DNA of 19,697 nucleotides from Myxococcales bacterium. Lineage in GTDB: Bacteria; Myxococcota_A; UBA9042. A program made the position numbers and the translations under genes. The stretch spans positions 1-19,697 of the forward strand of contig JBBISH010000118.1 in assembly GCA_037441385.1 (NCBI GenBank). Direction: 5' to 3'. Position 1 is the stretch's first letter, and each line of letters begins with the position of its first letter. The notes beneath the pieces were generated by a model that did not search any database, was not told the DNA's origin, and saw nothing but the letters and a program-made list of their open reading frames with translations. Below, piece by piece: positions 2,210 through 19,697 of the stretch.

Positions 2210-3124
2210 ATGTCGAGTTCCTTGTTTGACCAACTGGCGCATGGTGTGGCGCGGCCCGTAGCGGTGGTCACGGCGGGCGGTACGCGCGAAGCCATCGACG
2301 ATGTGCGGCATCTGTCCAATGTGGCGACCGGTGCGCTGCCGTGCGCGATCGCCGAGGCGCTGATGGCGCGCGGCTGGCAGGTGGAGTATTTGCACGGCCC
2401 GGGCGCCCGTTTGCCCGGACATCTGCCGGTGGTGATCGACGCCACGGCGGCCGATTGGCCGGCGCGCTGGCACGAGGCTGAGGCGCGCGCCGAGCGGCTC
2501 GCCCGCAAATTGCGCCCGGGGCAAGTGCACTTGCATCCGATCCAGACCGCGGCAGAGGCCGCCGAGGCGCTGGCCAGCTTGTGTCGCGCCTGCCAGCCTG
2601 CCCTGACGGTCTGTGCCATGGCGGTGGCGGACTTTGCGCCCAAGGCGGTGGCCGGCAAGCTGTTGTCGCGCGTCGATTCGCTGGGTCAGCCCACGGCGCC
2701 CTACGGCCGGCCGCAGCGTCCCGATGCCGGGGCCGCGGCGGGGGTGTTGCGCCTGGACCTGTACCCGACCCCCAAGGCCATCGACGGCGTGCGTGCGGCG
2801 GCGCCCCATACGCGCCTGCTGGGCTTCAAGCTGCTGGCCGGCGCCGACGAGGCGACCTTGCTGCAAGCCAGTACACACTTGGCACACCGCGCCCAGGCCG
2901 ATCTGGTCTTTGCCAACGACATGAAGGACTACCGCGCTGGTGCCCGCACTGGCCTCTTGCTGGCCGCGCACGGTGCGGTGTTGGCCCGGCTCGACGGCGG
3001 CCATGGCGAAGAAGCGACTCAGCGCCTGGCCGAGCTCATCGTGCAGTACGTCGCGCGCGATCTGGTCGGGCTACCCGTGAGTCCAGACGCACCAACGCGC
3101 CGCATTGAGCTGGTCAAGCCGTAG
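2210..3124 (+). CDS. coaB: Stand-alone phosphopantothenate--cysteine ligase (CoaB-like)
   Basis: VTAGGTREAIDDVRHLSNVATG, AMAVADF, LDLYPTPKAI, LLGFKLL and ADLVFAND motifs; no N-terminal CoaC flavoprotein domain. Confidence 0.8.
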   Translation: MSSSLFDQLAHGVARPVAVVTAGGTREAIDDVRHLSNVATGALPCAIAEALMARGWQVEYLHGPGARLPGHLPVVIDATAADWPARWHEAEARAERLARKLRPGQVHLHPIQTAAEAAEALASLCRACQPALTVCAMAVADFAPKAVAGKLLSRVDSLGQPTAPYGRPQRPDAGAAAGVLRLDLYPTPKAIDGVRAAAPHTRLLGFKLLAGADEATLLQASTHLAHRAQADLVFANDMKDYRAGARTGLLLAAHGAVLARLDGGHGEEATQRLAELIVQYVARDLVGLPVSPDAPTRRIELVKP

Positions 3125-3181
3125 AGACGCGGCCAATTACTGCTCATTGGTTCAGTAATTGCCGCTTCGGGTCGCGTCTCT
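3121..3181. repeat. GTAG-initiated REP-like palindrome / hairpin between convergent genes
   Basis: gtAGAGACGCGGCC..GGTCGCGTCTCT outer arms (one G-T pair) enclose a perfect CAATTACTG/CAGTAATTG 9-bp stem; overlaps the coaB stop codon. Confidence 0.55.
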
Positions 3182-3325
3182 GGCCCCAAGTGGGGCGCAA
3201 GCGAGCGCCTGCTGCGACTCGCCGCGCCGAGTTCGAGGGTTTGGATGCGCGGAGAAACTCCAAATTGATCCGATCTGTAGTGGGCTTTGGCGGCCGAACG
3301 GTCCATGCCCGTGGCGTCCTGGCGG

Positions 3326-6327: not shown

Positions 6328-7712
6328 CGGCTGCCCTTGCCGAAATGCTGGAGCGACTTGGCCTGCGGTTTTCTATAGATCCCGGCGATTTGCAGGCCTA
6401 TGGGCGCGACTGGACGCGGGCCTTTGCAGCGAACGCTGCGGCCGTGGTCTGGCCGGCCAATACTGACCAAGTCTCAGACATCTTGAGGTTCTGTAGCGAG
6501 CACCGTCTGGCCGTCGTCCCTTCAGGTGGTCGCACCGGGCTAGCCGGTGGCGCCGTGGCGACGCGCGGCGAGATCGTGTTGTCGCTTGACCGCTTGGGCG
6601 ATCTGGACCCGGTCGACACGGCCGGCCGCAGCGTCGAGGTGGGCGCGGGGGTGACCAACCAAGCCCTGCAAGACCACTTGCGGCCGCATGGCCTGTGGTG
6701 GCCGGTGGACTTGGCGAGCAAGGGCTCGGCGCAGATCGGCGGCAATTTGGCCACGAATGCCGGGGGCTTGCGCGTGCTCCGCTATGGCCATGCGCGCCAT
6801 TGGCTGCTGGGTGTACAGGCCGTCAAGATGGACGGCAGTGTGTTGCAGCTGGGCGGGCCGCTGGCCAAGGACAATTCTGGCTATGCTTTGGCGCAGTTAC
6901 TGGCTGGCAGCGAAGGTACTCTGGCGGTGATGACCCGAGCGACCCTGGCGCTGGCGCCGCTTCCTGGGCCCACTCAGACCTTGCTGCTGGCCTGCCCGTC
7001 GCTGGGGGCGGTGGTCCGGGCGTTGGCATGGCTGCGAAGTCGGCCGATCACGTTGGATGCCTTCGAGGTTTTTTCCGACCTCTGCGTCGAGCACGTCGCG
7101 CGGCACACGGGCCAGCGGCGGCCGTTGCCCACTTCGGCGCCATGGTATGCGTTGGTGGCGTTCGAGGACCCGCAAGACAGTCAGACCGACGCCATCTTGG
7201 TCGGCTTGCTCGACGGGGGCCTGGCCAGTGACGGTGCCGTGGCGGTCGACCGCCAGCATGCCCAGCGCCTGTGGCAGTGGCGCGAGCGGATCACCGAGTC
7301 CTTGCAAGCATTTACGCCCCACAAGAACGATATCGCCGTACCCGTCGCCGCCCTGCCCGCCTTTGGCGCCGACTTGTTGGCTTGGCTGAACCGCCAAGCG
7401 TTGCCGTTGCCGATCGCGGTGTTCGGCCACGTGGGCGACGGCAACCTGCACCTGAACACGCTGCGGCCCGTGGATTGGAGCGCCGAGCGGTTTTCGGCCA
7501 CCTGTGATGAGCTGGACGGCGACCTGTTTGCGCTGGTGGCCAAGCACCGCGGCTCGATCTCGGCCGAGCACGGCATTGGCCTGGTCAAAAAGCCGTGGCT
7601 GCATCTGACCCGTGGCCCCGCCGAGGTGGCGACGATGCGGGCCGTGAAGCGTGCCTGGGACCCGCAGGGACTGCTCAATCCCGGCAAGATCTTCGATACG
7701 CACCCCACCTGA
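6324..7712 (+). CDS. FAD-binding oxidoreductase, D-2-hydroxyglutarate dehydrogenase-like (FAD_binding_4 + FAD-oxidase_C)
   Basis: PSGGRTGLAGGA, IGGNLATNAGG, GSEGTL, PHKNDIAV, FGHVGDGNLHLN, GSISAEHGIG and DPQGLLNPGKIF motifs; ATG at 6324 coupled to the upstream stop. The last four codons and the stop come from MITE copy 1. Confidence 0.92.
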   Translation: MTAALAEMLERLGLRFSIDPGDLQAYGRDWTRAFAANAAAVVWPANTDQVSDILRFCSEHRLAVVPSGGRTGLAGGAVATRGEIVLSLDRLGDLDPVDTAGRSVEVGAGVTNQALQDHLRPHGLWWPVDLASKGSAQIGGNLATNAGGLRVLRYGHARHWLLGVQAVKMDGSVLQLGGPLAKDNSGYALAQLLAGSEGTLAVMTRATLALAPLPGPTQTLLLACPSLGAVVRALAWLRSRPITLDAFEVFSDLCVEHVARHTGQRRPLPTSAPWYALVAFEDPQDSQTDAILVGLLDGGLASDGAVAVDRQHAQRLWQWRERITESLQAFTPHKNDIAVPVAALPAFGADLLAWLNRQALPLPIAVFGHVGDGNLHLNTLRPVDWSAERFSATCDELDGDLFALVAKHRGSISAEHGIGLVKKPWLHLTRGPAEVATMRAVKRAWDPQGLLNPGKIFDTHPT

Positions 7713-7828
7713 TTCACGCCTGTACGGCTCTGTTGACCCGTTGTGCAACTGGCGAAAATCAGGCGGGGACCCCGGTTCGGGCCCGGAGAATCGCCTGAAT
7801 TTTCGATCCGATTCGGACGGAACCGGTA
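7697..7828 (+). mobile_element. 132-bp MITE-like element, copy 1
   Basis: TACGCACCCCACCTGATTC...GATTCGGACGGAACCGGTA flanked by the direct repeat CGA (7694-7696 and 7829-7831); colinear with three other copies. Confidence 0.88.
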
Positions 7829-7861
7829 CGATTTGTAGCGAATTGGAGGTCCGCGGCGACC

Positions 7862-7893
7862 GGGCGGCGAGGGTTCACTTCCTCCGCGCCGCC
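7862..7893. terminator. GC-rich hairpin between convergent genes (possible terminator)
   Basis: GGGCGGCG ... CGCCGCCC 8-bp arms with inner AGG/CCT pairing; no strong U-tract. Confidence 0.3.
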
Positions 7894-7925
7894 CCGCACC
7901 TGTCGGCTATCTTCTCTAGGACTTA

Positions 7926-8057
7926 TACGAACCCCGTCTGATTCACGCCTGTACGGCTTCTCTGACCCGGTCTGCAACCGGCGAGAATCAGGCGGGGACC
8001 CCGGTTCGGGCCCGGAGAATTGCCCGAGTTTTCGATCCGATTCGGACGGAACTGGTA
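7926..8057 (+). mobile_element. 132-bp MITE-like element, copy 2
   Basis: TACGAACCCCGTCTGATTC...GATTCGGACGGAACTGGTA flanked by TTA (7923-7925) and CTA (8058-8060, the acyl-CoA dehydrogenase stop). Confidence 0.88.
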
Positions 8058-9953
8058 CTAGGCCGCCTTGCTCGCCTGGGCCTGCTCCACCGCGGCCAGG
8101 TCCGCCAGCAGCTCGGTGCCGTGCTCTTCGATTTCGGCCAGCCAGTGGCGGCAGCGCAGGTCGGCGCGCTTGAGGAACCGCTCGGCATCCTTGCGGCGAT
8201 CCGGGTACTTGATCGCGTACTTGACCAAGATGCGCGCGATCGTCACCTCGGCCAGGATCTTGGTCAGGCGCTCGGCGTGCAGCATGCCCGGGGCAAAGTC
8301 GACCTTGGGGTCCCACTGCGAGAACAGCGCTTCGGTCCAATCGCCCACCGGCAGTTCGTAGGTGGCCTTCATCTTGTTCTTGGCGATGCGCAACAGGATG
8401 GTCTGCAACGCCTTGTACTTGTAGGCGAACAGCCGGCTCAGGTTCTTCTCCAGCGGATCGTTCTCGGCCACGCGCTTCCAATTGGCGCGCGCCATCTTGA
8501 CAATGAACCGCCGCGGATCCTTCAGGCCCTGCATCAGCTGGTCCTTCAGGACCATCAGCGACTGGATCTGGCTCGTGCCCTCGTAGATGGGCAGCACCAG
8601 CGCGTCGCGCAGCAGCTTCTCGGGCAGGTACTCGCACGAGTAGCCGACGCCGCCCAGGATCTGCATGGCCATGCGGCTGAATTCCACAGCCTTTTCGGAC
8701 GCGATGTACTTGACCAGCGGCGTCATGTCGCGGGCCTGCCGGCGCACGCGCGACAGCTTCTTCTCCATGTCGGCGCGCGCCGCCTCGTCCTTGGGCGGAT
8801 CGAACTTGAGGATCAGCTCCCACCGCATCGCCTTTTCGACCTTTTGCGTCGCCTCGAAGCACAGCGCCCGCAGGCCCTTGGCGTACAGCTCCATGTCCTC
8901 CAGGTAGTCGGCGATCATCTCGTGGCGATCGATGGTCTTGCCCATCGTCACGCGCTGCGCCGCGTAGTCCTTGGCCGTGCGAATCGCGGCTTCCACGATG
9001 CCCAGCGACTCGAAGCCGACCGCCAGGCGCGCCGAATTCATCAGCAGCAACATCAGTTCAAAGCCTTCGCCGCGGCGGCCGATGAGCTCGCCGATCGAGT
9101 CCTCGTAGACCAGCACGCAGGTGGGCGAGCTGTGGTGGCCGATTTTGTGCTCGACCTTGGCGATGCGCACGTTGGTCTTGCCGTCCAGCTTCTGGCGGCA
9201 CAGGAACAGCGAAATCCCCTTGAGGCCCGGAGCTTTCTGCGGATCTTCGGTGCGGGCGAGCACCAGCTGGTACTGGCCGTTGCCGCTCGTGATCCACATC
9301 TTCTCGCCGTTGAGGCGCCACTGCCCGTCGTCGCCCAGCACCGCGGTGGTCTTGATTTGCGCCAAGTCCGAGCCCGCGCCGGCTTCGGTCAGGACCATGC
9401 AGCCCCACTTGCCGTTGGTCAGGATGTCCTTGATCACTTCGTCGTAAGGCGTGGACATCAAACGTCCATTCTCGATCTTGCTCCGCGGATCGCGCAGCGC
9501 GTACATCATCAGCGATAGCGCGATGCCGGTGTGGAAGCCAAAGTGGGTCATGCACGACACGTCGGCGCGCGCCAGCACTTCGGCGGCGGCCATGTACACC
9601 ACGACCGGGGCGTTCAGACCGCCCAGTTCGCGCGGCAGCGGTACGCCGAACACGTCCATCTTCTTGAGACCCTTGAAGATCTTGTCCAGATGGGGCGACA
9701 TCACCACTTCGCCGTTCTCGAGCCGCGTGCCGTCATCGTCCATCTTGCGCGTGTACGGATCGACGTTCCTGGCCACGTACTTGCCGAATTCGCGCAGGAT
9801 GTCCTCGAAGGTGTCGCGGGCGTCGCGCACCGAATTGGGCCGGTCTTCCGCCTTGGCGCCGTGTTCGGCCAGGTCGACCAGCGTGTCCCATTCGACGGCC
9901 TGCTCGATCCAGAACTTCAGGTCTTCGTTGTCCAGATAGAAATTGTCGCTCAT
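8058..9953 (-). CDS. Acyl-CoA dehydrogenase family protein (long, ~630 aa)
   Basis: GCMVLTEAGAGSDL, WRLNGEKMWITSG, GISLFL, EHKIGHHSSPTC, MNSARL, QILGGVGY and RDALVLPIYEGTSQIQ motifs; GAGGG SD upstream. Confidence 0.96.
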   Translation of the reverse strand: MSDNFYLDNEDLKFWIEQAVEWDTLVDLAEHGAKAEDRPNSVRDARDTFEDILREFGKYVARNVDPYTRKMDDDGTRLENGEVVMSPHLDKIFKGLKKMDVFGVPLPRELGGLNAPVVVYMAAAEVLARADVSCMTHFGFHTGIALSLMMYALRDPRSKIENGRLMSTPYDEVIKDILTNGKWGCMVLTEAGAGSDLAQIKTTAVLGDDGQWRLNGEKMWITSGNGQYQLVLARTEDPQKAPGLKGISLFLCRQKLDGKTNVRIAKVEHKIGHHSSPTCVLVYEDSIGELIGRRGEGFELMLLLMNSARLAVGFESLGIVEAAIRTAKDYAAQRVTMGKTIDRHEMIADYLEDMELYAKGLRALCFEATQKVEKAMRWELILKFDPPKDEAARADMEKKLSRVRRQARDMTPLVKYIASEKAVEFSRMAMQILGGVGYSCEYLPEKLLRDALVLPIYEGTSQIQSLMVLKDQLMQGLKDPRRFIVKMARANWKRVAENDPLEKNLSRLFAYKYKALQTILLRIAKNKMKATYELPVGDWTEALFSQWDPKVDFAPGMLHAERLTKILAEVTIARILVKYAIKYPDRRKDAERFLKRADLRCRHWLAEIEEHGTELLADLAAVEQAQASKAA

Positions 9954-10256
9954 GGAATGGCCCTCGCGATGGATATGGCTTGGTGGAATTGGCGTGAAGG
10001 CAGCGCGATCGTACCGCCGTCTATGGCAAATAACGCTTTTCGACGCGGCGCGTCAACTGGAATCGACTGAGCGCGGCAAATCCTACAATTCCATGACGCA
10101 AGCCCGCGGATCCGCTGTCGGAGCACCGGTTGCGGGGTGCGATTCACCCCCATGCCGTTCGCGTAGATCGACGGAAGCCGACGCGCGTCTAGGAACCTGG
10201 ACCTGATGTCCCACACTCCCGCCTGATTCACCTTCTTGTTCAACTGCGAGGTCGCG

Positions 10257-12392
10257 ATGCGTAAGATTTCTGTGGCTTTGGCACTGGCCGTTCTTTCAGC
10301 CCTGGCGTCGGCTTGTGGCGCTCACACCTCGTATGTCGCTGCCGATCAGGCTGCGCTGGGGCGCGTGGTGGTCTACCGCAACGGCGTCGCGTTCTACGAG
10401 CGCAAGGCCGCGGTCGACGGCGATCAGCTGGTGCTGCGCGTGCCGCAGGACAAAGTCGACGACTTCTTGAAGTCGCTGACCGTAGTGGATGCCAAGACCA
10501 AGGAGTCGCTGCCGATCTCGTTCCCGTCGCCCGGCCAGGCCAAGAACGGCCAGATCGAGATGGTCATCCAGCTGCCGGACCGAAACCACCGCGACGTGGT
10601 GTTGAGCTACGTGACCGAATCGCCTGCCTGGAAGCCAACTTACCGCGTGGCGGTGGGTGAGAACGGTAAGGTGGACCTGCAGGGCTGGGCGATCGTCGAC
10701 AACACTTCGGGCGAGGATTGGAAGGCCGTGCAGGTGGGCGTGGGCTCGAGCTCGGCGCTGTCGTTCCGCTACGACCTGCACTCGATTCGGGTCGTGCACC
10801 GCGAAACGCTGCACAGCAACGACAGTTTTGCCAAGGCGCCGCCTTTGGGTGGCAGCGTGGGGCGCGAAGATCAGGGCAAGGAAGTGGCCCTGGCCGCGCT
10901 GAGTGACGAAGAATTGGCTCGCCCCGAAGGCCACCCCGACGTCGCCGACTCGGGCGCGTACTACAAGGCGCCGGCTTCGGTCGCTCCTCGGTCGGGTGGG
11001 GCCAACGGTGCGCCCTCTGTGGTGGCTTTGGGTGACGCAGCCGGTGGCACGCGCGCCGCGCGCTATCGCGTGGAGAAAGCCGCCAAAGTCGCCACCAAAG
11101 ATGTGGCGTCCGAGGACCGCAAAGTCGTGGCGCTGGCTGAGCAAATCAAGAACGCCCGCCAGCCCGTGGTGGTCGAGGGGTACGCCAATGCGGGCGAGTC
11201 CGACGCCGACGACAAGGCCCTGGATCGGGCCAATATCCTGCGCAATCAGCTGATCGAGCGCGGCGTTCCACCAGCGCAGGTGCAAGCGGTGGGCCGCGGC
11301 GTGGTGGCGGGACAGAAGGCCGGCGTGCGGCTGGTGGTTGCGCCCCAACCGGCCCAGAGCGGCAAGCCCGAAGACCAGGACGCGCCGCCGGTGGGCGAGA
11401 GCCACTTTGACAGCAAGCTGCCGATGACGGTGGCCAAGGGCACCAGCGCGATGGTGTCGATCGTCCAGGGCCAGGCCCAGGGCGAGGTCGTGTACCTGTA
11501 CGATGCCGAAAGCACGGGTGGCGACAGCCGCTATGCGTTCAAGGCCGTGCGCTTCAAGAATCCGACCGGCTCCACGCTCGAAAGTGGGCCGATCACGGTG
11601 TACGGCGCCGGGCGGTTTGTGGGCGAGGGACTGGCCGAGCCGATCCCGCCGGGAGCGACCGCGGTCGTGCCGTTTGCGCTGGATCGCCAAGTCGTCGTCG
11701 ACCGCGACGGCTCGACCGGCGATCGCATGAGCAAGCTGGTCAAGCTCAGCCGCGGGGCGCTCACCGCCGAGGTGCAGCACCTCCGCACCACCAAGTTGAA
11801 GATCGCCAACCGCAGCCACCTGACCACCACGGTGCTGGTGCGCCACACCACGCCCAAGGGCTGGACCATCAGCAAGGGGCCCAAGGCGGCCGAAGTGATT
11901 GGCGAAGCGCGCCTGTTTGCCGTGGAAGTGCCGGCGGGCGAGAGCCGCATCCTGGAGATCGAGGAAGCGACGCCGCTCACCCGCACCGTGGACATGCGCT
12001 CGCCCGTGGGCGTGGAGATGGTGCGCTTGTATCTAGAGACGGCCAAAGAGGATCCCAAGGTCGAGGCATCGATCAAGAAGCTGGTGGCCTTGTTCGACGA
12101 CATGGCCAAGACCCAAGAGCAGATCGCCCATCTGCGCGAGCGGGCTGAGGAATACCGCGTCCGCAGCGACGAACTGCATGACCAGATTTTCAGCCTGAAG
12201 CTGGTCAAGACGGCGGGGCCGCTGATGGCGCATCTGCAGCAGAAGATGAAGGAAATGAGCGACCGCGTGCAGCAGACCACGTTGGATGTGGTCAGCGCTC
12301 AAGAGCGGCTGATGGTCGCCAAGGTCAAGTTCCAAGACGAACTGGCCGAGATCTCGCTGGATCACCGGCCCACGCAGGCCGCGGCCAAGTAG
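10257..12392 (+). CDS. DUF4139/DUF4140-like lipoprotein with an inserted OmpA-like domain and coiled-coil C-terminus
   Basis: GAGGT SD before ATG 10257; lipobox LASAC; RVVVYRNGVAFYE, DDFLKSLTV, PAWKPTYR and WAIVDNTSGEDW motifs; VVVEGYAN..ALDRANILRNQLIERGVPPAQVQAVGRG is OmpA_C-like. Confidence 0.85.
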   Translation: MRKISVALALAVLSALASACGAHTSYVAADQAALGRVVVYRNGVAFYERKAAVDGDQLVLRVPQDKVDDFLKSLTVVDAKTKESLPISFPSPGQAKNGQIEMVIQLPDRNHRDVVLSYVTESPAWKPTYRVAVGENGKVDLQGWAIVDNTSGEDWKAVQVGVGSSSALSFRYDLHSIRVVHRETLHSNDSFAKAPPLGGSVGREDQGKEVALAALSDEELARPEGHPDVADSGAYYKAPASVAPRSGGANGAPSVVALGDAAGGTRAARYRVEKAAKVATKDVASEDRKVVALAEQIKNARQPVVVEGYANAGESDADDKALDRANILRNQLIERGVPPAQVQAVGRGVVAGQKAGVRLVVAPQPAQSGKPEDQDAPPVGESHFDSKLPMTVAKGTSAMVSIVQGQAQGEVVYLYDAESTGGDSRYAFKAVRFKNPTGSTLESGPITVYGAGRFVGEGLAEPIPPGATAVVPFALDRQVVVDRDGSTGDRMSKLVKLSRGALTAEVQHLRTTKLKIANRSHLTTTVLVRHTTPKGWTISKGPKAAEVIGEARLFAVEVPAGESRILEIEEATPLTRTVDMRSPVGVEMVRLYLETAKEDPKVEASIKKLVALFDDMAKTQEQIAHLRERAEEYRVRSDELHDQIFSLKLVKTAGPLMAHLQQKMKEMSDRVQQTTLDVVSAQERLMVAKVKFQDELAEISLDHRPTQAAAK

Positions 12393-12401
12393 GCTGAGCT
12401 A

Positions 12402-12533
12402 CACGGACCCCACCTGATGCGTGCCTGTACGGCTTTTCTGACCCGTTCTGCAACCGGCGAGAATCAGGCGGGGACCCCAGTTCGAGCCCGGAGAATTGCC
12501 GGAGATTTCGAGCCGATTCAGACGGATTCCGTA
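12402..12533 (+). mobile_element. 132-bp MITE-like element, copy 3
   Basis: CACGGACCCCACCTGATGC...GATTCAGACGGATTCCGTA flanked by CTA (12399-12401) and CTA (12534-12536, the stop of the minus-strand gene). Confidence 0.88.
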
Positions 12534-13406
12534 CTACGGTGCGTCGTGCGCCATCGCCCAAGCGTAGCGCATCACGTGATTCGAGGCCGCCGCCACCGCA
12601 CACGCCGCGAGCAGGCCCGTTTCTCGGCCGCTCAGCAGCGCGTTGGTCAAGACCAGTCCCGGCAGCGCCAGCCCCAACAGCGCCACCGCGCCGGCCAGCA
12701 CGTCGACCCGCTCGAGCGTCGCTGTGGGCGCCCGCACCGCCTGGCCTCGCCGCAAGTGGCGCCAGCCTGCCAGCAGGCACCCCGCCCAGAACAGCGCGTG
12801 ACCACAGAGCAAACCGACAGCACTCGTCAAGTCGTTGCGCGTGGCCGCCGTCAGCCGATCCGTGGCGGCCGCCAAGACGAGCAGCACCGCGGCGCCGCCG
12901 GCAACGGTATGCGCGCTGGCCTGCAGCAGCTGCAGCAGCGGCAAGGGCGGCTGTCCAGGCCCCACCGCCAGTGCGCGCAGGCCCAAAATGGCCAAAAGTG
13001 GCACGCCGCTGACCATCGCCGCGCCCGTGAGGAGCGTGGGCCCGGGCAGCCACGGCGCCGCGTAGCTCTGCGTCGGCCACTGCAACCCCGCAGCCAGCCC
13101 AGAACCCACCGCGCCCAGCGCGGCAAAACCCAGCAAGAACGGCAAGGTGACGGCCAAGTGCGGTGCGCGCCCGCGCTGGTCGCCCAGATTCCACCACCAG
13201 CCCGCCCAGGCCAGCATGCCGCCCAAGGTCAGCAAACCCGCGGCGACCACAGCAGTTTCTCGGCCAGCGGGCTGGTCATTGCCCGCCGAGCCCACGTGCA
13301 TCAGCGCCGCTGTGAGCAGCAGCCCGGCGCCCAGCCCAATCAAGCTGAATTCGCTGGCCAAAAGCCCAGCTCGCGTCTGGTTGTCTTCTGCAAGAGCGCG
13401 CTTCAT
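12534..13406 (-). CDS. Polytopic membrane protein, possibly divergent NrfD/DmsC-like
   Basis: About 8 hydrophobic segments; start MKRALAED at 13406 overlaps the upstream stop (ATGA). EFSLIGLGAG, WNLGDQRGRAPHL and the terminal NHVMRYAW loosely recall NrfD/DmsC motifs. Confidence 0.7.
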   Translation of the reverse strand: MKRALAEDNQTRAGLLASEFSLIGLGAGLLLTAALMHVGSAGNDQPAGRETAVVAAGLLTLGGMLAWAGWWWNLGDQRGRAPHLAVTLPFLLGFAALGAVGSGLAAGLQWPTQSYAAPWLPGPTLLTGAAMVSGVPLLAILGLRALAVGPGQPPLPLLQLLQASAHTVAGGAAVLLVLAAATDRLTAATRNDLTSAVGLLCGHALFWAGCLLAGWRHLRRGQAVRAPTATLERVDVLAGAVALLGLALPGLVLTNALLSGRETGLLAACAVAAASNHVMRYAWAMAHDAP

Positions 13407-13558
13407 GGCTGGACGGACAAACCCCATGCCAAAACAGTTAGTTGCAGGATTACGACCGCCGCAGCGATCAACCAAGCCCGCGCGGTGGGCTCGCCGCTGA
13501 GCACCGGGTTGGGAGTAGGTTCAACGCGGTCTGGGGCTGGGGCGGGTTCGGTGGCCAT
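13403..13558 (-). CDS. Small (51 aa) single-pass membrane protein
   Basis: MATEPAPAPDRVEPTPNPVLSGEPTARAWLIAAAVVILQLTVLAWGLSVQP*; below the ORF-track cutoff; its TGA overlaps the ATG of the next gene; promoter-like motif directly upstream. Confidence 0.65.
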   Translation of the reverse strand: MATEPAPAPDRVEPTPNPVLSGEPTARAWLIAAAVVILQLTVLAWGLSVQP

Positions 13559-13593
13559 GCCCCAAGCTTGGCACGGCGGCCGTGCGGGTGCAA
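13559..13593 (-). promoter_or_regulatory. Putative leaderless promoter with palindromic spacer
   Basis: Minus strand: TTGCAC, 17 bp, (TGc)CAAGCT, 6 bp, ATG at 13558; the spacer contains the GCACGGC-n-GCCGTGC inverted repeat. Confidence 0.4.
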
Positions 13594-13598
13594 AGTGA

Positions 13599-13730
13599 TA
13601 CGACCCCCACCTGATTCACGCCGGTACGGTATCTCAGACCCGCTATGCAACCTGCGAGAATCAGGTGGGGACCCTGGTCCGGGCTCGAAGAATTGCCCAA
13701 GTTTTCGAGCCGATTCAGACGGATTCCGTA
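13599..13730 (+). mobile_element. 132-bp MITE-like element, copy 4
   Basis: TACGACCCCCACCTGATTC...GATTCAGACGGATTCCGTA flanked by TGA (13596-13598) and TGA (13731-13733). Confidence 0.88.
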
Positions 13731-13768
13731 TGATGGGCAGTCAGCTTTGCTGGCAGGTCGAGGTTCGC

Positions 13769-14740
13769 ATGAAGATTCTGTGGTTGGCTCGCAGCGTTGC
13801 GGCATTGCTGCTCTTTTCGGCAACCATGCCTGCAAGCGCGGTCTGCGCCGAGACTCCCTGTCGCCCCGGTCCGCAAGTCTACGCGACCGTGGTCAGCAAT
13901 TGCGCCTACGGTCAGCCGCAGATCGATGGCGACTTGGTGCTGGTGCCCAAGATCTGCCGGCACGACTTGGCGGGGCGCTCGGTGGTGCGGCGCTCGGTGG
14001 AAGTCAAGCTGCTCGCCAATGGCCAGCGCGTGCAGCAAGCCTCGTTGCCACCAGAGGATTCGACCGCCACCACCCTGCCCGCCGTGGGGCAATTGTGGCC
14101 AGGCGCTCCGGCGCTGTTGGCCTATCCCGGCGGTATCGCTGCCATCGAACCCCGCGCCGGCAAGGCCGATGTGGTGCTGGAGCCGCAAGGGACCCTCATT
14201 GCCATGGCGCGATCCGCCGACCTACTGGCGCTGCTCGAGCAATTGCCCAGCGACGGCAAAGGCAAGCCGGTGCTCGAGTGGACGGTGCTGGACTTGGCGG
14301 CAGGCGAGATTCTGGGCCAGGCGCACTTGAGTTTGCCCAAGGTCCTGGATCTGCGCTGGGTCAGCAGCGCCAGTGGACTGCAGGTGGCCTTAGAGGGACA
14401 GGCCGACGACAAGCGCCTCCGCCTGCAAGCGCCGGTACGCGATGCTGCAGGCAAGTCCTTGATTGTCAAAGAGGCCTTGGTGCCGGTGCCCCAAGCGGCG
14501 GCGAACTGCGTCCCAGCCGCAGGCGCCGATCCGGGCGCGATGCTGGACCGCGAAATCGTGCGCATCGAGAGTGCCGGCGACGCCAAGTTGGGCCGCCCGG
14601 GAGCCACGCCCGATTGCGATACGCCCAGCAAGTGTCTGGCGATGGTGGGGCCGTATGCCGGCGGCCGGTGGCTCGTGTGGCTCCAGCCAGCGTCTGGGCC
14701 TCGCGAACTCCGCGTGTGCGCTGAGCCGGCGGTCAAGTAG
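13769..14740 (+). CDS. Secreted hypothetical protein (Cys-containing, beta-rich)
   Basis: GAGGT SD before ATG 13769; signal peptide MKILWLARSVAALLLFSATMPASA. The track's N-terminal extension merely reads through MITE copy 4. Confidence 0.75.
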   Translation: MKILWLARSVAALLLFSATMPASAVCAETPCRPGPQVYATVVSNCAYGQPQIDGDLVLVPKICRHDLAGRSVVRRSVEVKLLANGQRVQQASLPPEDSTATTLPAVGQLWPGAPALLAYPGGIAAIEPRAGKADVVLEPQGTLIAMARSADLLALLEQLPSDGKGKPVLEWTVLDLAAGEILGQAHLSLPKVLDLRWVSSASGLQVALEGQADDKRLRLQAPVRDAAGKSLIVKEALVPVPQAAANCVPAAGADPGAMLDREIVRIESAGDAKLGRPGATPDCDTPSKCLAMVGPYAGGRWLVWLQPASGPRELRVCAEPAVK

Positions 14741-18211: not shown

Positions 18212-18534
18212 TTGACTGGCGGGACGTGCAACTCACAAACCTTCACGACCCGGTGCTATTCGCAGGCTTGGCGGGCGCGCAGTCCGTAGCCGATCGCGGG
18301 CCTGTATCTGTTTGTAACTATTTAGCAATGGCGTAGGCTGCGACGGCGTCCGGGTGAGGGCCGCGCCTTGTGAGCAAACGAAACCGGTGCTATACGTGGA
18401 CCCGCACGCTCAGGCAGCGCCCGCCCCCGCCCTGCCGGGCCAAGACTCGACCTACCCCTGCGCCAGACACGGCACGGGACGCTGGGCTTGCGAAAGGGAC
18501 GTGTGCCATGGCCCCCGCGCGCGGACAGGGCCAA

Positions 18535-18595
18535 CTAGTACTACAAACCCGAAGTTCCTTCCGGGTTAGGATTTTCGAATGGTTTGTAGTACTAG
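18535..18595. repeat. 61-bp CTAG-bounded palindromic element A
   Basis: Perfect 15-bp inverted repeat CTAGTACTACAAACC / GGTTTGTAGTACTAG; AT-rich relative to its surroundings. Confidence 0.8.
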
Positions 18596-18657
18596 CATCT
18601 TCAGCCAGCAAAGGGGGCGCGCCGCCCCCTGCGACCCCCGCGCGCGGCTAGCGCCGC

Positions 18658-18710
18658 CTAGTACACCAAGGGGCCGCAACTCGGAACGAAATTACGGCGT
18701 GGTGTACTAG
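18658..18710. repeat. 53-bp CTAG-bounded palindromic element B
   Basis: Perfect 11-bp inverted repeat CTAGTACACCA / TGGTGTACTAG plus an inner imperfect GCCGCAA/TTACGGC stem. Confidence 0.75.
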
Positions 18711-18740
18711 CTGGGGTCAAAACCTATCCGAGGTCATCCG

Positions 18741-19697
18741 ATGTTGCGAACTGGACGCCCAATTTCCGCCGCCGCGACCGCCGCTGCACTGCTGCTCCCT
18801 GCTGCAACTCTGGCGGCTGCGACTCTGGCTGCTGCGGCTCTGGCTGATGCGGCTCAGGCTGCCGAGCCCGCGCCCACTCCGGCCAAGGCTGCGGACCCGT
18901 TGCAGATCGACGTGGGCGTGATGGGTGGTTTCACCTCGTTTGCCAGCAATTCCGGCCTGGGCAACGCCGCCAAGGCGGAAGACCGGCCCGGTGCAGGTCC
19001 GTTGGTAGGGCTGCACGCTGGTGTTGTGCTGCTGGACCGGCATCTGGCGGTCGAAGCGTCGTTCCGCGACACCTTTACGCAGCTGGTGAGCAAGGCGTCG
19101 TCGGCGCAGGTCCTGGGCTGGCGCGTCCGCGGTCTGTGGTACCTCCTGAACGACGGCGCCGTGTTGCCCTATGTGCAGGTGGGCGGGGGCCAGGACATCC
19201 TGGTCAACGGCAAGAGCCAGTGCAAGACGGCCACCAGCAGCAACTGCGTGTGGGTCAAAACCCCGGATGCAGACAACGCGTTCGAGGTCGGTTTGGGCGT
19301 GAAGGTGCCCATCACCTACCGTTTGGGCTTGCGCGTTGCGGGCCTGTACATGATTGGCGACTCGCGTCCGGGTACCAAGGCCATCGCCTCTGAATTTGAG
19401 GCCCAGGCCGGGGTGACCTGGTCGTTTGGCGGCAAGGCAGAGGACTCGGACAAGGACGGCCTGCCCGACAACCTGGACAAGTGCCCCGACCAGGCCGAGG
19501 ACATGGATGGCTTCCAGGACCAGGACGGCTGCCCCGACCTGGACAATGACGGCGACGGCATCAACGACACCCACGACAAGTGCCCGAACGAAGCCGAGGA
19601 TCTGGACAAGTTCCACGACGAAGACGGTTGCCCGGATCCCGACAACGACAACGACGGCGTGCCGGACGTCAAGGACAAGTGCCCCGACCAGCCCGAG
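18741..19697 (+). CDS. Outer-membrane beta-barrel protein with thrombospondin type 3-like Ca-binding repeats (OmpA family; 3' truncated)
   Basis: Not in the track because it has no stop in the window. GAGGT SD, ATG 18741; Ala/Leu signal peptide; barrel strands (LPYVQVGGG, FEVGLGVKV, FEAQAGVTWSFG); then DSDKDGLPDNLDKCP..EDMDGFQDQDGCPD repeats. The C-terminal OmpA domain is inferred, not visible. Confidence 0.9.
   Translation, partial: MLRTGRPISAAATAAALLLPAATLAAATLAAAALADAAQAAEPAPTPAKAADPLQIDVGVMGGFTSFASNSGLGNAAKAEDRPGAGPLVGLHAGVVLLDRHLAVEASFRDTFTQLVSKASSAQVLGWRVRGLWYLLNDGAVLPYVQVGGGQDILVNGKSQCKTATSSNCVWVKTPDADNAFEVGLGVKVPITYRLGLRVAGLYMIGDSRPGTKAIASEFEAQAGVTWSFGGKAEDSDKDGLPDNLDKCPDQAEDMDGFQDQDGCPDLDNDGDGINDTHDKCPNEAEDLDKFHDEDGCPDPDNDNDGVPDVKDKCPDQPE
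18801..18860 (+). repeat. 4 x 15-bp tandem repeat within the signal-peptide coding region
   Basis: GCTGCAACTCTGGCG GCTGCGACTCTGGCT GCTGCGGCTCTGGCT GATGCGGCTCAGGCT, encoding AATLA AATLA AAALA DAAQA. Confidence 0.8.

Follow-up and report, generated by a model that had tools for sequence, protein, structure and literature searches.

A 132-bp miniature element that duplicates TNA in a Myxococcales genome and its likely mobilisation by an IS630-branch transposase

Four copies of a 132-bp element at the locus

The window, by which we mean the whole 19,697-nucleotide stretch of DNA analysed here, is contig C118 of the host genome G000 (6.63 Mb, 66.9% GC, 221 contigs, 91% complete) and carries four copies of a 132-bp MITE (miniature inverted-repeat transposable element), all of them, like their flanking target duplications, read on the plus strand. 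Copy 1 (7697..7828) sits two codons ahead of the stop codon of a gene for an FAD-linked oxidase, which now terminates within the element (..KIFDTHPT*, the asterisk marking the stop), and is enclosed by the triplet CGA on its left (7694..7696) and right (7829..7831); an internal hairpin spans 7703..7768 (plus strand, element positions 7-72), with the end motif CC..CTGATTC repeated in inverted form at positions 60-72. Copy 2 (7926..8057), which belongs to the youngest subfamily and has one difference to its nearest copy, is preceded by TTA (7923..7925) and followed by CTA (8058..8060); the latter is the TAG stop codon of an acyl-CoA dehydrogenase gene on the minus strand, whose ortholog in genome G005 stops at TTA (TAA). 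Copy 3 (12402..12533) lies between convergent genes and is bracketed by CTA (12399..12401 and 12534..12536), the right-hand triplet being the TAG stop of a minus-strand open reading frame (ORF, 12534-13475). Copy 4 (13599..13730) is intergenic, flanked by TGA (13596..13598 and 13731..13733), and the most diverged, with 18 differences to its nearest copy.

A preliminary description of this DNA had recognised the four co-oriented copies and their flanks (CGA/CGA, TTA/CTA, CTA/CTA and TGA/TGA), and our alignment, which is free of internal gaps, agrees with it in every coordinate. The counts of differences given there for copies 1 and 2 (15/132) and copies 1 and 4 (29/132) were exact, and the remaining pairs differ at 22 (copies 1 and 3), 19 (2 and 3), 22 (2 and 4) and 24 (3 and 4) of 132 positions. 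The ends had also been described as imperfect inverted repeats, which holds when the left end of copy 2 is compared with the reverse-complemented right end of copies 3 and 4 (15/19) but much less so within a copy, where only 10, 13, 12 and 12 of 19 positions agree in copies 1 to 4; the imperfect terminal inverted repeats consist of a flush TAC...GTA and a CC..C.GA.TC motif. The window had been stated to lack a transposase, and by inspection none of its ORFs is transposase-like, the family-library scan having covered four window proteins. A known structured RNA, another identity considered at that stage, was sought in Rfam over 7500-14000, but up to an E of 1 nothing matched copies 1 to 4, the one weak match in this interval lying inside the acyl-CoA dehydrogenase gene.

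A genome-wide family with TNA target duplications

The family had been expected to be abundant, and BLAST with the four copies returned 393 loci in the 6.63 Mb, 241 of which span at least 120 nt and 214 of which are gapless, full-length and have usable flanks. The average density is thus one locus per 17 kb, which the four copies in 6 kb exceed (Poisson p 0.0005). Tabulating the flanks of the 214 copies revealed a 3-bp duplication with the consensus T-N-A (TNA), T occurring in 85% and 79% and A in 80% and 79% of left and right flanks, respectively. Of the 214 copies, 170 have the same middle base left and right, where 30% would be expected; the 3-bp duplication is perfect in 107, none extends to 4 bp, and 98 of the 108 copies flanked by TNA left and right agree in the middle base. 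The fidelity of the duplication declines with divergence, and so with age, from 29 of 39 among the youngest copies to 11 of 57 among the oldest.

The reading TNA-TA-[128 bp]-TA-TNA, with a classical TA duplication, is also open for a filled site, and empty sites were therefore needed. Seventeen of the 214 copies are nested within another repeat of which an uninterrupted paralogue exists; here, the offset is -3 in 15 cases, -4 in one and mixed in one, although one of the 15 (on C170) is doubtful, with a match to a neighbouring copy, and several have a host repeat in common. The offset of +2 that a TA-type insertion would leave occurs in none of the 17, and no empty site retains a terminal TA. 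Orthologous loci shorter by 135 bp had been predicted, and the copy-1 ortholog in G005 is shorter by exactly this length, reading ..AAAATCTT CGA TTTGTAG and encoding KIFDL*. Neither the nested empty sites nor this ortholog thus shows the 2-bp TA duplication of classical IS630/Tc1/mariner MITEs such as the pneumococcal RUP (see below) and those of Stowaway type. The base that follows copy 1 is C, as in the empty CGA site of G005, and not the usual T; genome-wide, covariation at this position is weak, with 7 of 32 non-T cases matching. Copies 2, 3 and 4 are likewise missing from G005, and copies 3 and 4 from G007; in these regions the intergenic DNA has diverged too far for the ends to be placed to the base. 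Copy 4 is absent after GTGCAAAGTG in both genomes. In read-derived contigs we saw neither an empty-site joint nor the end of an autonomous element. An alternative delimitation raised in the preliminary description, a 133-bp element with a 2-bp duplication, gives the same net insert but loses the flush TAC...GTA symmetry, and we do not retain it.

The element is therefore a MITE that is non-autonomous, present genome-wide and associated with true target duplications: it is short (132 bp), non-coding, multi-copy (393 loci) and dispersed, with 190 of 214 copies intergenic or on a stop codon. According to our home-made gene model of 4662 genes, 152 sites are intergenic, 38 fall on stop codons and 24 in coding calls, many of the last being doubtful. 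Stop codons thus account for 38 of the 190 non-disrupting sites, compared to 9.2% of such TNA triplets (p 6e-6), and these copies would be tolerated because TGA and TAA are TNA triplets that the duplication restores. Purifying selection would strip most insertions from genes, leaving copies between genes and on stops. About four of the 214 copies are internal in-frame candidates in predicted genes, the clearest being C145:6272-6403, a copy with a TCA/TCA duplication that lies in frame within a predicted 759-codon gene and keeps the frame open; the few such copies would be explained by the 135-bp insert amounting to 45 codons and by four of the six frames being open in most copies (180-198 of 214).

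Among 30 related genomes, the family occurs in G007 at about 80% identity and as one weak copy in G001, and in none of the other 28. The host genome also contains some 38-42 copies of a 65-bp short form, in which positions 1-10 are joined to positions 78-132, the stretch from 11 to 77 having dropped out between two copies of ACCCC. End variants from several of the long subfamilies occur in this form, and this suggests that the left hairpin has been deleted repeatedly. A link of CIR-like type to a GANTC methylase was discarded, the genome showing no depletion of GANTC (observed/expected 0.95). We regard the MITE as ordinary selfish DNA and the family as apparently uncatalogued.

Candidate transposases and an IS5 neighbour

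Mobilisation in trans had been proposed from the window, and the non-autonomous half of that proposal is borne out by the copies, duplications and empty sites above, while the mobilising enzyme is known only by inference from elements in other genomes. Our preferred interpretation is that the MITE inserts at and duplicates TNA and is likely cut and pasted by a D-31-E transposase of an IS630 branch that includes elements resembling ISAva6 and ISAli3. DDE transposases bind the ends of their element, excise it, integrate it at a staggered cut and leave gaps to be filled; accordingly worded for this MITE, the enzyme would bind ends of about 20 bp and excise the element, which would then be joined at a 3-nt staggered cut in TNA, gap filling producing the duplication.

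MITE ends recur on other cores and in other genomes. A pattern scan of genome contigs gave at least five loci, two of which are members of real families; the same scan found one solo end in metagenomes and two loci in viruses, neither with a transposase-like ORF by inspection. In G039 the end motif encloses other cores of 201 and 312 bp with perfect duplications, and in G046 (L076, L108 and L110) 30-bp units, very short for a mobile unit and probably deletions between two GATTC motifs, have TAC...G(T/C)A ends and TNA-like flanks (TAA/TAA at L076). Two Phycisphaeraceae genomes hold the motif 79 and 15 times, with paired ends forming near-perfect terminal inverted repeats with TNA flanks; one end of this type precedes a decayed helix-turn-helix (HTH) frame that stayed below the Pfam cut-off. 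The abundant MITE family of the two Phycisphaeraceae genomes, G431 and G430 (L114-L142), has near-perfect TACGGATCCCACTTGA ends, TNA duplications and interchangeable cores of 110-290 bp that resemble repetitive extragenic palindromes (REP). Within the host's family, decayed IS630 remnants with the MITE end motif were found at L058 in G044 and L062 in G039. A homology search with the L012 fragment returned nothing, and end-like matches in L054/L070 were dropped as coding sequence.

Intact elements were searched for starting from the L058 protein. The first four plasmid elements fetched (from Methylocystis rosea, Thermus, ISAva6 and Deinococcus) all have TAC...GTA ends and exact TNA duplications, as do L150 and L152 from the host's phylum, L150 encoding an IS630 transposase by NCBIfam, above cut-off. 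L147, from the same phylum, has TCA/TGA flanks, and the other loci of this phylum are partial or lack a clear duplication. Eight of 12 further plasmid matches are flanked by TNA on both sides (one of them, L164, with TTC...GAA ends), and among 30 loci from the order of G431 exact TNA duplications occur at 10. ISAva6 splits mobV, of which Nostoc punctiforme has an empty allele with TGA present once and in frame; the TA...TA therefore belongs to the element. The ends are also similar to those of the MITE: one L209 end agrees with copy 1 at 16/19, the highest value among 1370 TAC-starting 19-mers in those loci, an end of L208 matches at 14/19, and the left end of the M. rosea element (L159) matches the right end of copy 4 at 15/19. 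In catalytic-domain trees the TNA elements form one branch, with support of 95/95 in a first tree (18 of 46 rows left out) and 97 in a second (7 of 46 left out, among them L058 and two TA controls), and four TA-type rows fall outside it. Members of the branch have DxxGWH, their second D being separated from the E by 31 residues (32 in one), versus 34-37 outside it where measurable. Taken together, these data make it very probable that a whole IS630 branch duplicates TNA, on proteobacterial, cyanobacterial and Deinococcus/Thermus plasmids as well as in genomes of planctomycetes and of the host's phylum.

Several observations weigh against this branch as a uniform TNA duplicator or as the source of the MITE's enzyme. 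One of the 12 further plasmid matches is of TA type and three could not be assigned, and among the 30 loci from the order of G431, six have TNA on both sides with differing middle bases and 14 were not assignable. A one-clade test rejected the TNA group (p-AU 0.004) because three rows of unassigned duplication nest inside it; a repeat test confined to rows of known duplication, designed after inspection of the tree, placed the group on one side of a branch with a support of just 74. At L014 (1373-2643, in G001) an IS630 element with TAC...GTA ends but TA flanks falls outside the TNA branch, so that having TAC ends does not suffice for a diagnosis. The ends most similar to those of the MITE are from a different phylum, many branch members agree with the MITE ends at no more than 4-11/19, and the two ends of the MITE match each other poorly, at 10-13/19 within one copy. 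Finally, no TNA-branch IS630 transposase was found in G000 by PF13358, tblastn or an HTH query, nor in G007, G046 or G431; the cognate enzyme would be either lost from G000 or unassembled in its 221 contigs. TNA on both sides with differing middle bases was seen at L229, L209, L212, L215, L231, L232 and L147, including a copy of a recent multi-copy element, and may reflect recombination between copies or mis-paired flanks.

In the host genome itself, searches with PF13340, PF13359, PF13358, PF13546 and PF07592 gave no match, whereas PF13586 detected four contig-end fragments of an IS5 element that duplicates TNA and has the ends GAGGGTGT. Sixteen ends starting GAGGGTGTGTACA, eight left and eight right, all have TNA flanks, and intact relatives of about 1.2-1.3 kb have similar ends, with a GAGGG start in L030, L033, L037, L040 and L043. 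Two PF01609 transposases were considered as drivers and rejected for want of MITE-like ends, and in a paired-end scan for a long element bounded by MITE ends the four candidates inspected (C4, C34, C122 and C1) enclose ordinary genes. The 47 solo MITE ends in G000 have no common inner sequence save another repeat. By eye, we also noted an IS1182-like 470-codon transposase frame with CTAG flanks at C209:2900-4560 and an IS1634-like fragment at the start of C4; several further collapsed insertion-sequence (IS) ends cluster at contig breaks.

The IS5 element is the obvious local rival as the mover of the MITE, being the only TNA-duplicating transposase seen in G000, recently active (its fragments are identical save for one base) and directed to an identical 3-bp target; MITE copies adjoin 6 of its 16 ends, and in another repeat it has inserted at a TCA that several MITE copies also hit. 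The preliminary description had also hinted at the IS5 family. Yet DDE transposases work on their own terminal repeats, and the host IS5 ends (GAGGGTGTGTACA, GAGGG) match the MITE consensus ends at 5-6/19, compared to up to 16/19 for IS630 ends, which share the terminal TAC. Judged from these ends, the IS5 element does not appear to be the parent of the MITE, and we consider it improbable that it moves it. A very different origin, spread of a REP/REPIN-like hairpin by a single-strand HUH enzyme of RAYT or TIRYT type, or a structured RNA element, would suit the two-hairpin fold (plus-strand z -1.5 to -5.0) and the REP-like palindromes that fill related elements in G039, G430 and G431. This we regard as highly unlikely in view of the clean 3-bp duplications and flush TAC...GTA ends, the recurrence, in other genomes, of the same ends around unrelated cores 30 to 312 bp long, a left stem conserved by identity and not by compensatory change, the 65-bp form that lacks this stem, and the failure of Rfam to match. 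Mobilisation by the IS630 branch thus remains the reading we favour.

The IS5 element nevertheless has a conspicuous spatial relation to the MITE. Six of its 16 ends (at C84, C98, C146, C149, C156 and C216; L027, L028) come directly after a MITE copy's right-hand duplication, and no end follows a left-hand one (6:0, p 0.016). The element is collapsed in the assembly, with about eight copies and all 16 ends at contig ends; eight IS copies with one MITE each would mean 6 of 8, and the share would still be 4 of 8 or more were some to have two. With a uniform background of intergenic TNA, P is 1.6e-9 for 6/8 and 4e-7 for 6/16, values that overstate the case should there be hot regions. The IS fragments hardly differ from one another and the adjoining MITE copies show 1 to 12 or more differences from their nearest relatives, and the IS5 element therefore probably arrived after the MITE; unrelated to it and IS1031-like, it would have landed recently, and mostly on the right-hand duplication of MITE copies. 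Separately, one TCA/TGA position of another repeat family has been hit by several MITE copies and by IS5 (C13:2356, C36:22035, C34:21893, C179:8256, C5:14645 and C89/C158), and the reversed IS5 end resembles the first 10 bases of the MITE, which may be chance.

The same pattern could arise with no recognition of the MITE, through a preference for GGTA directly followed by TNA, through shared hot regions or through mis-joined short reads, an account of this side finding alone to which we give nearly, though not quite, an even chance. MITE right ends make up 94 of the 315 GGTA-TNA sites in the genome and four of the six junctions are of this kind, so that such a preference could explain part of the pattern; also in its favour are the position of all 16 IS ends at contig ends and the small number of insertions (about eight). 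Conversely, none of the 10 IS ends away from the MITE has the GGTA-TNA context, although 70% of such sites are non-MITE, and two junctions read GGTG-TCA and CGTA-TAA. The junctions comprise four different triplets and both IS orientations, the triplet being that of the MITE's own left duplication in four of five copies compared, and the 8:8 balance of IS ends with nearly matching triplets speaks against mis-joins. If IS5 does home to MITE right ends, one transposon would be using the miniature of another family as a safe target, riding on sites already shown to be harmless. We offer only as a speculation, and one more doubtful than not, the combined proposal that the D-31-E IS630 branch cuts TNA with a 3-nt stagger, and may be misread as a TA duplicator because its ends are themselves TA...TA, and that the MITE is a dedicated landing pad whose right end the IS5 transposase recognises, inserting flush against it.

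Other repeats in the window and comparison with known systems

Further repeats share the window with the MITE. A separate intergenic structured repeat at 3118-3280 is found genome-wide, with up to 73 BLAST hits; a third family at 18512-18711, rich in CTAG/ACTAGT palindromes, has up to 41 hits and is present at many contig ends. At 19449-19697, 99-bp aspartate-rich tandem units encode 33-residue repeats in a gene truncated by the contig end, which resemble by eye the thrombospondin type 3 repeats of an OmpA-like protein.

A TNA-duplicating IS630 branch would correct the rule of thumb that TNA means IS5 and TA means IS630, with consequences for element boundaries and MITE attributions, and would provide a natural Tc1/mariner-like enzyme with another cut geometry for structural comparison. 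We found no paper describing IS630 elements with a TNA or 3-bp duplication in a literature search that lay outside ISfinder, subscription papers and preprint supplements, and none on ISAva6. In the accessible part of PMC7386202, TA counts as the classical duplication, eukaryotic Fot elements with TAA/TAAA being exceptions, and the Fig. S1 text lists ISAli3 and ISAva6 adjacent in an IS630 'clade H'; Table 2 of PMC6352166 gives a direct-repeat (DR) value of 2 for ISTth6, apparently a family-level value. The available text of PMC11544213 has DD31E nowhere but in a table, where it is entered for a Wolbachia phage fragment, and the portions of PMC10969869 and bioRxiv 2024.01.18.576219 at hand contain no match for 'myxo'.

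The closest functional parallel is RUP, the pneumococcal repeat unit, which the accessible text of PMC2229807 describes as a MITE attributed to IS630-Spn1. Like RUP, the present element is short, high-copy, mostly intergenic and non-autonomous and is tied to an IS630 transposase by end similarity; RUP, however, inserts at TA according to the same text, whereas the MITE here duplicates TNA, is GC-rich and has ends that match poorly and four frames that are mostly open. With ISAva6, ISAli3 (names taken from record annotations) and the Thermus IS630 element it has TAC...GTA ends and exact TNA duplications in common, although these autonomous elements of 1.1-1.2 kb encode a transposase and the MITE encodes none, and the ends of ISAva6 match those of the MITE at only 4-9/19, closer ends being those of L209, L208 and the M. 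rosea element L159.

The IS5 element of the host, assigned to its family by PF13586 and, for the relative L030, by NF033580, is like the IS1031 group, whose target is TNA. The element has the 3-bp TNA duplication in common with the MITE and has been recently active in the same genome, but its GAGGG ends are unrelated to the MITE ends, and it figures here as a neighbour inserting at the right-hand duplication. As far as the accessible part of PMC10969869 goes, Rickettsia palindromic elements can insert into genes in frame, whereas in-frame copies are rare here (about four candidates among 214), and IS1111 inserts in QMITE2 of Coxiella, a precedent for an insertion sequence that targets a MITE; in our case, by contrast, the insertion sequence belongs to IS5, not IS110, and lands flush outside the right end instead of inside the element.

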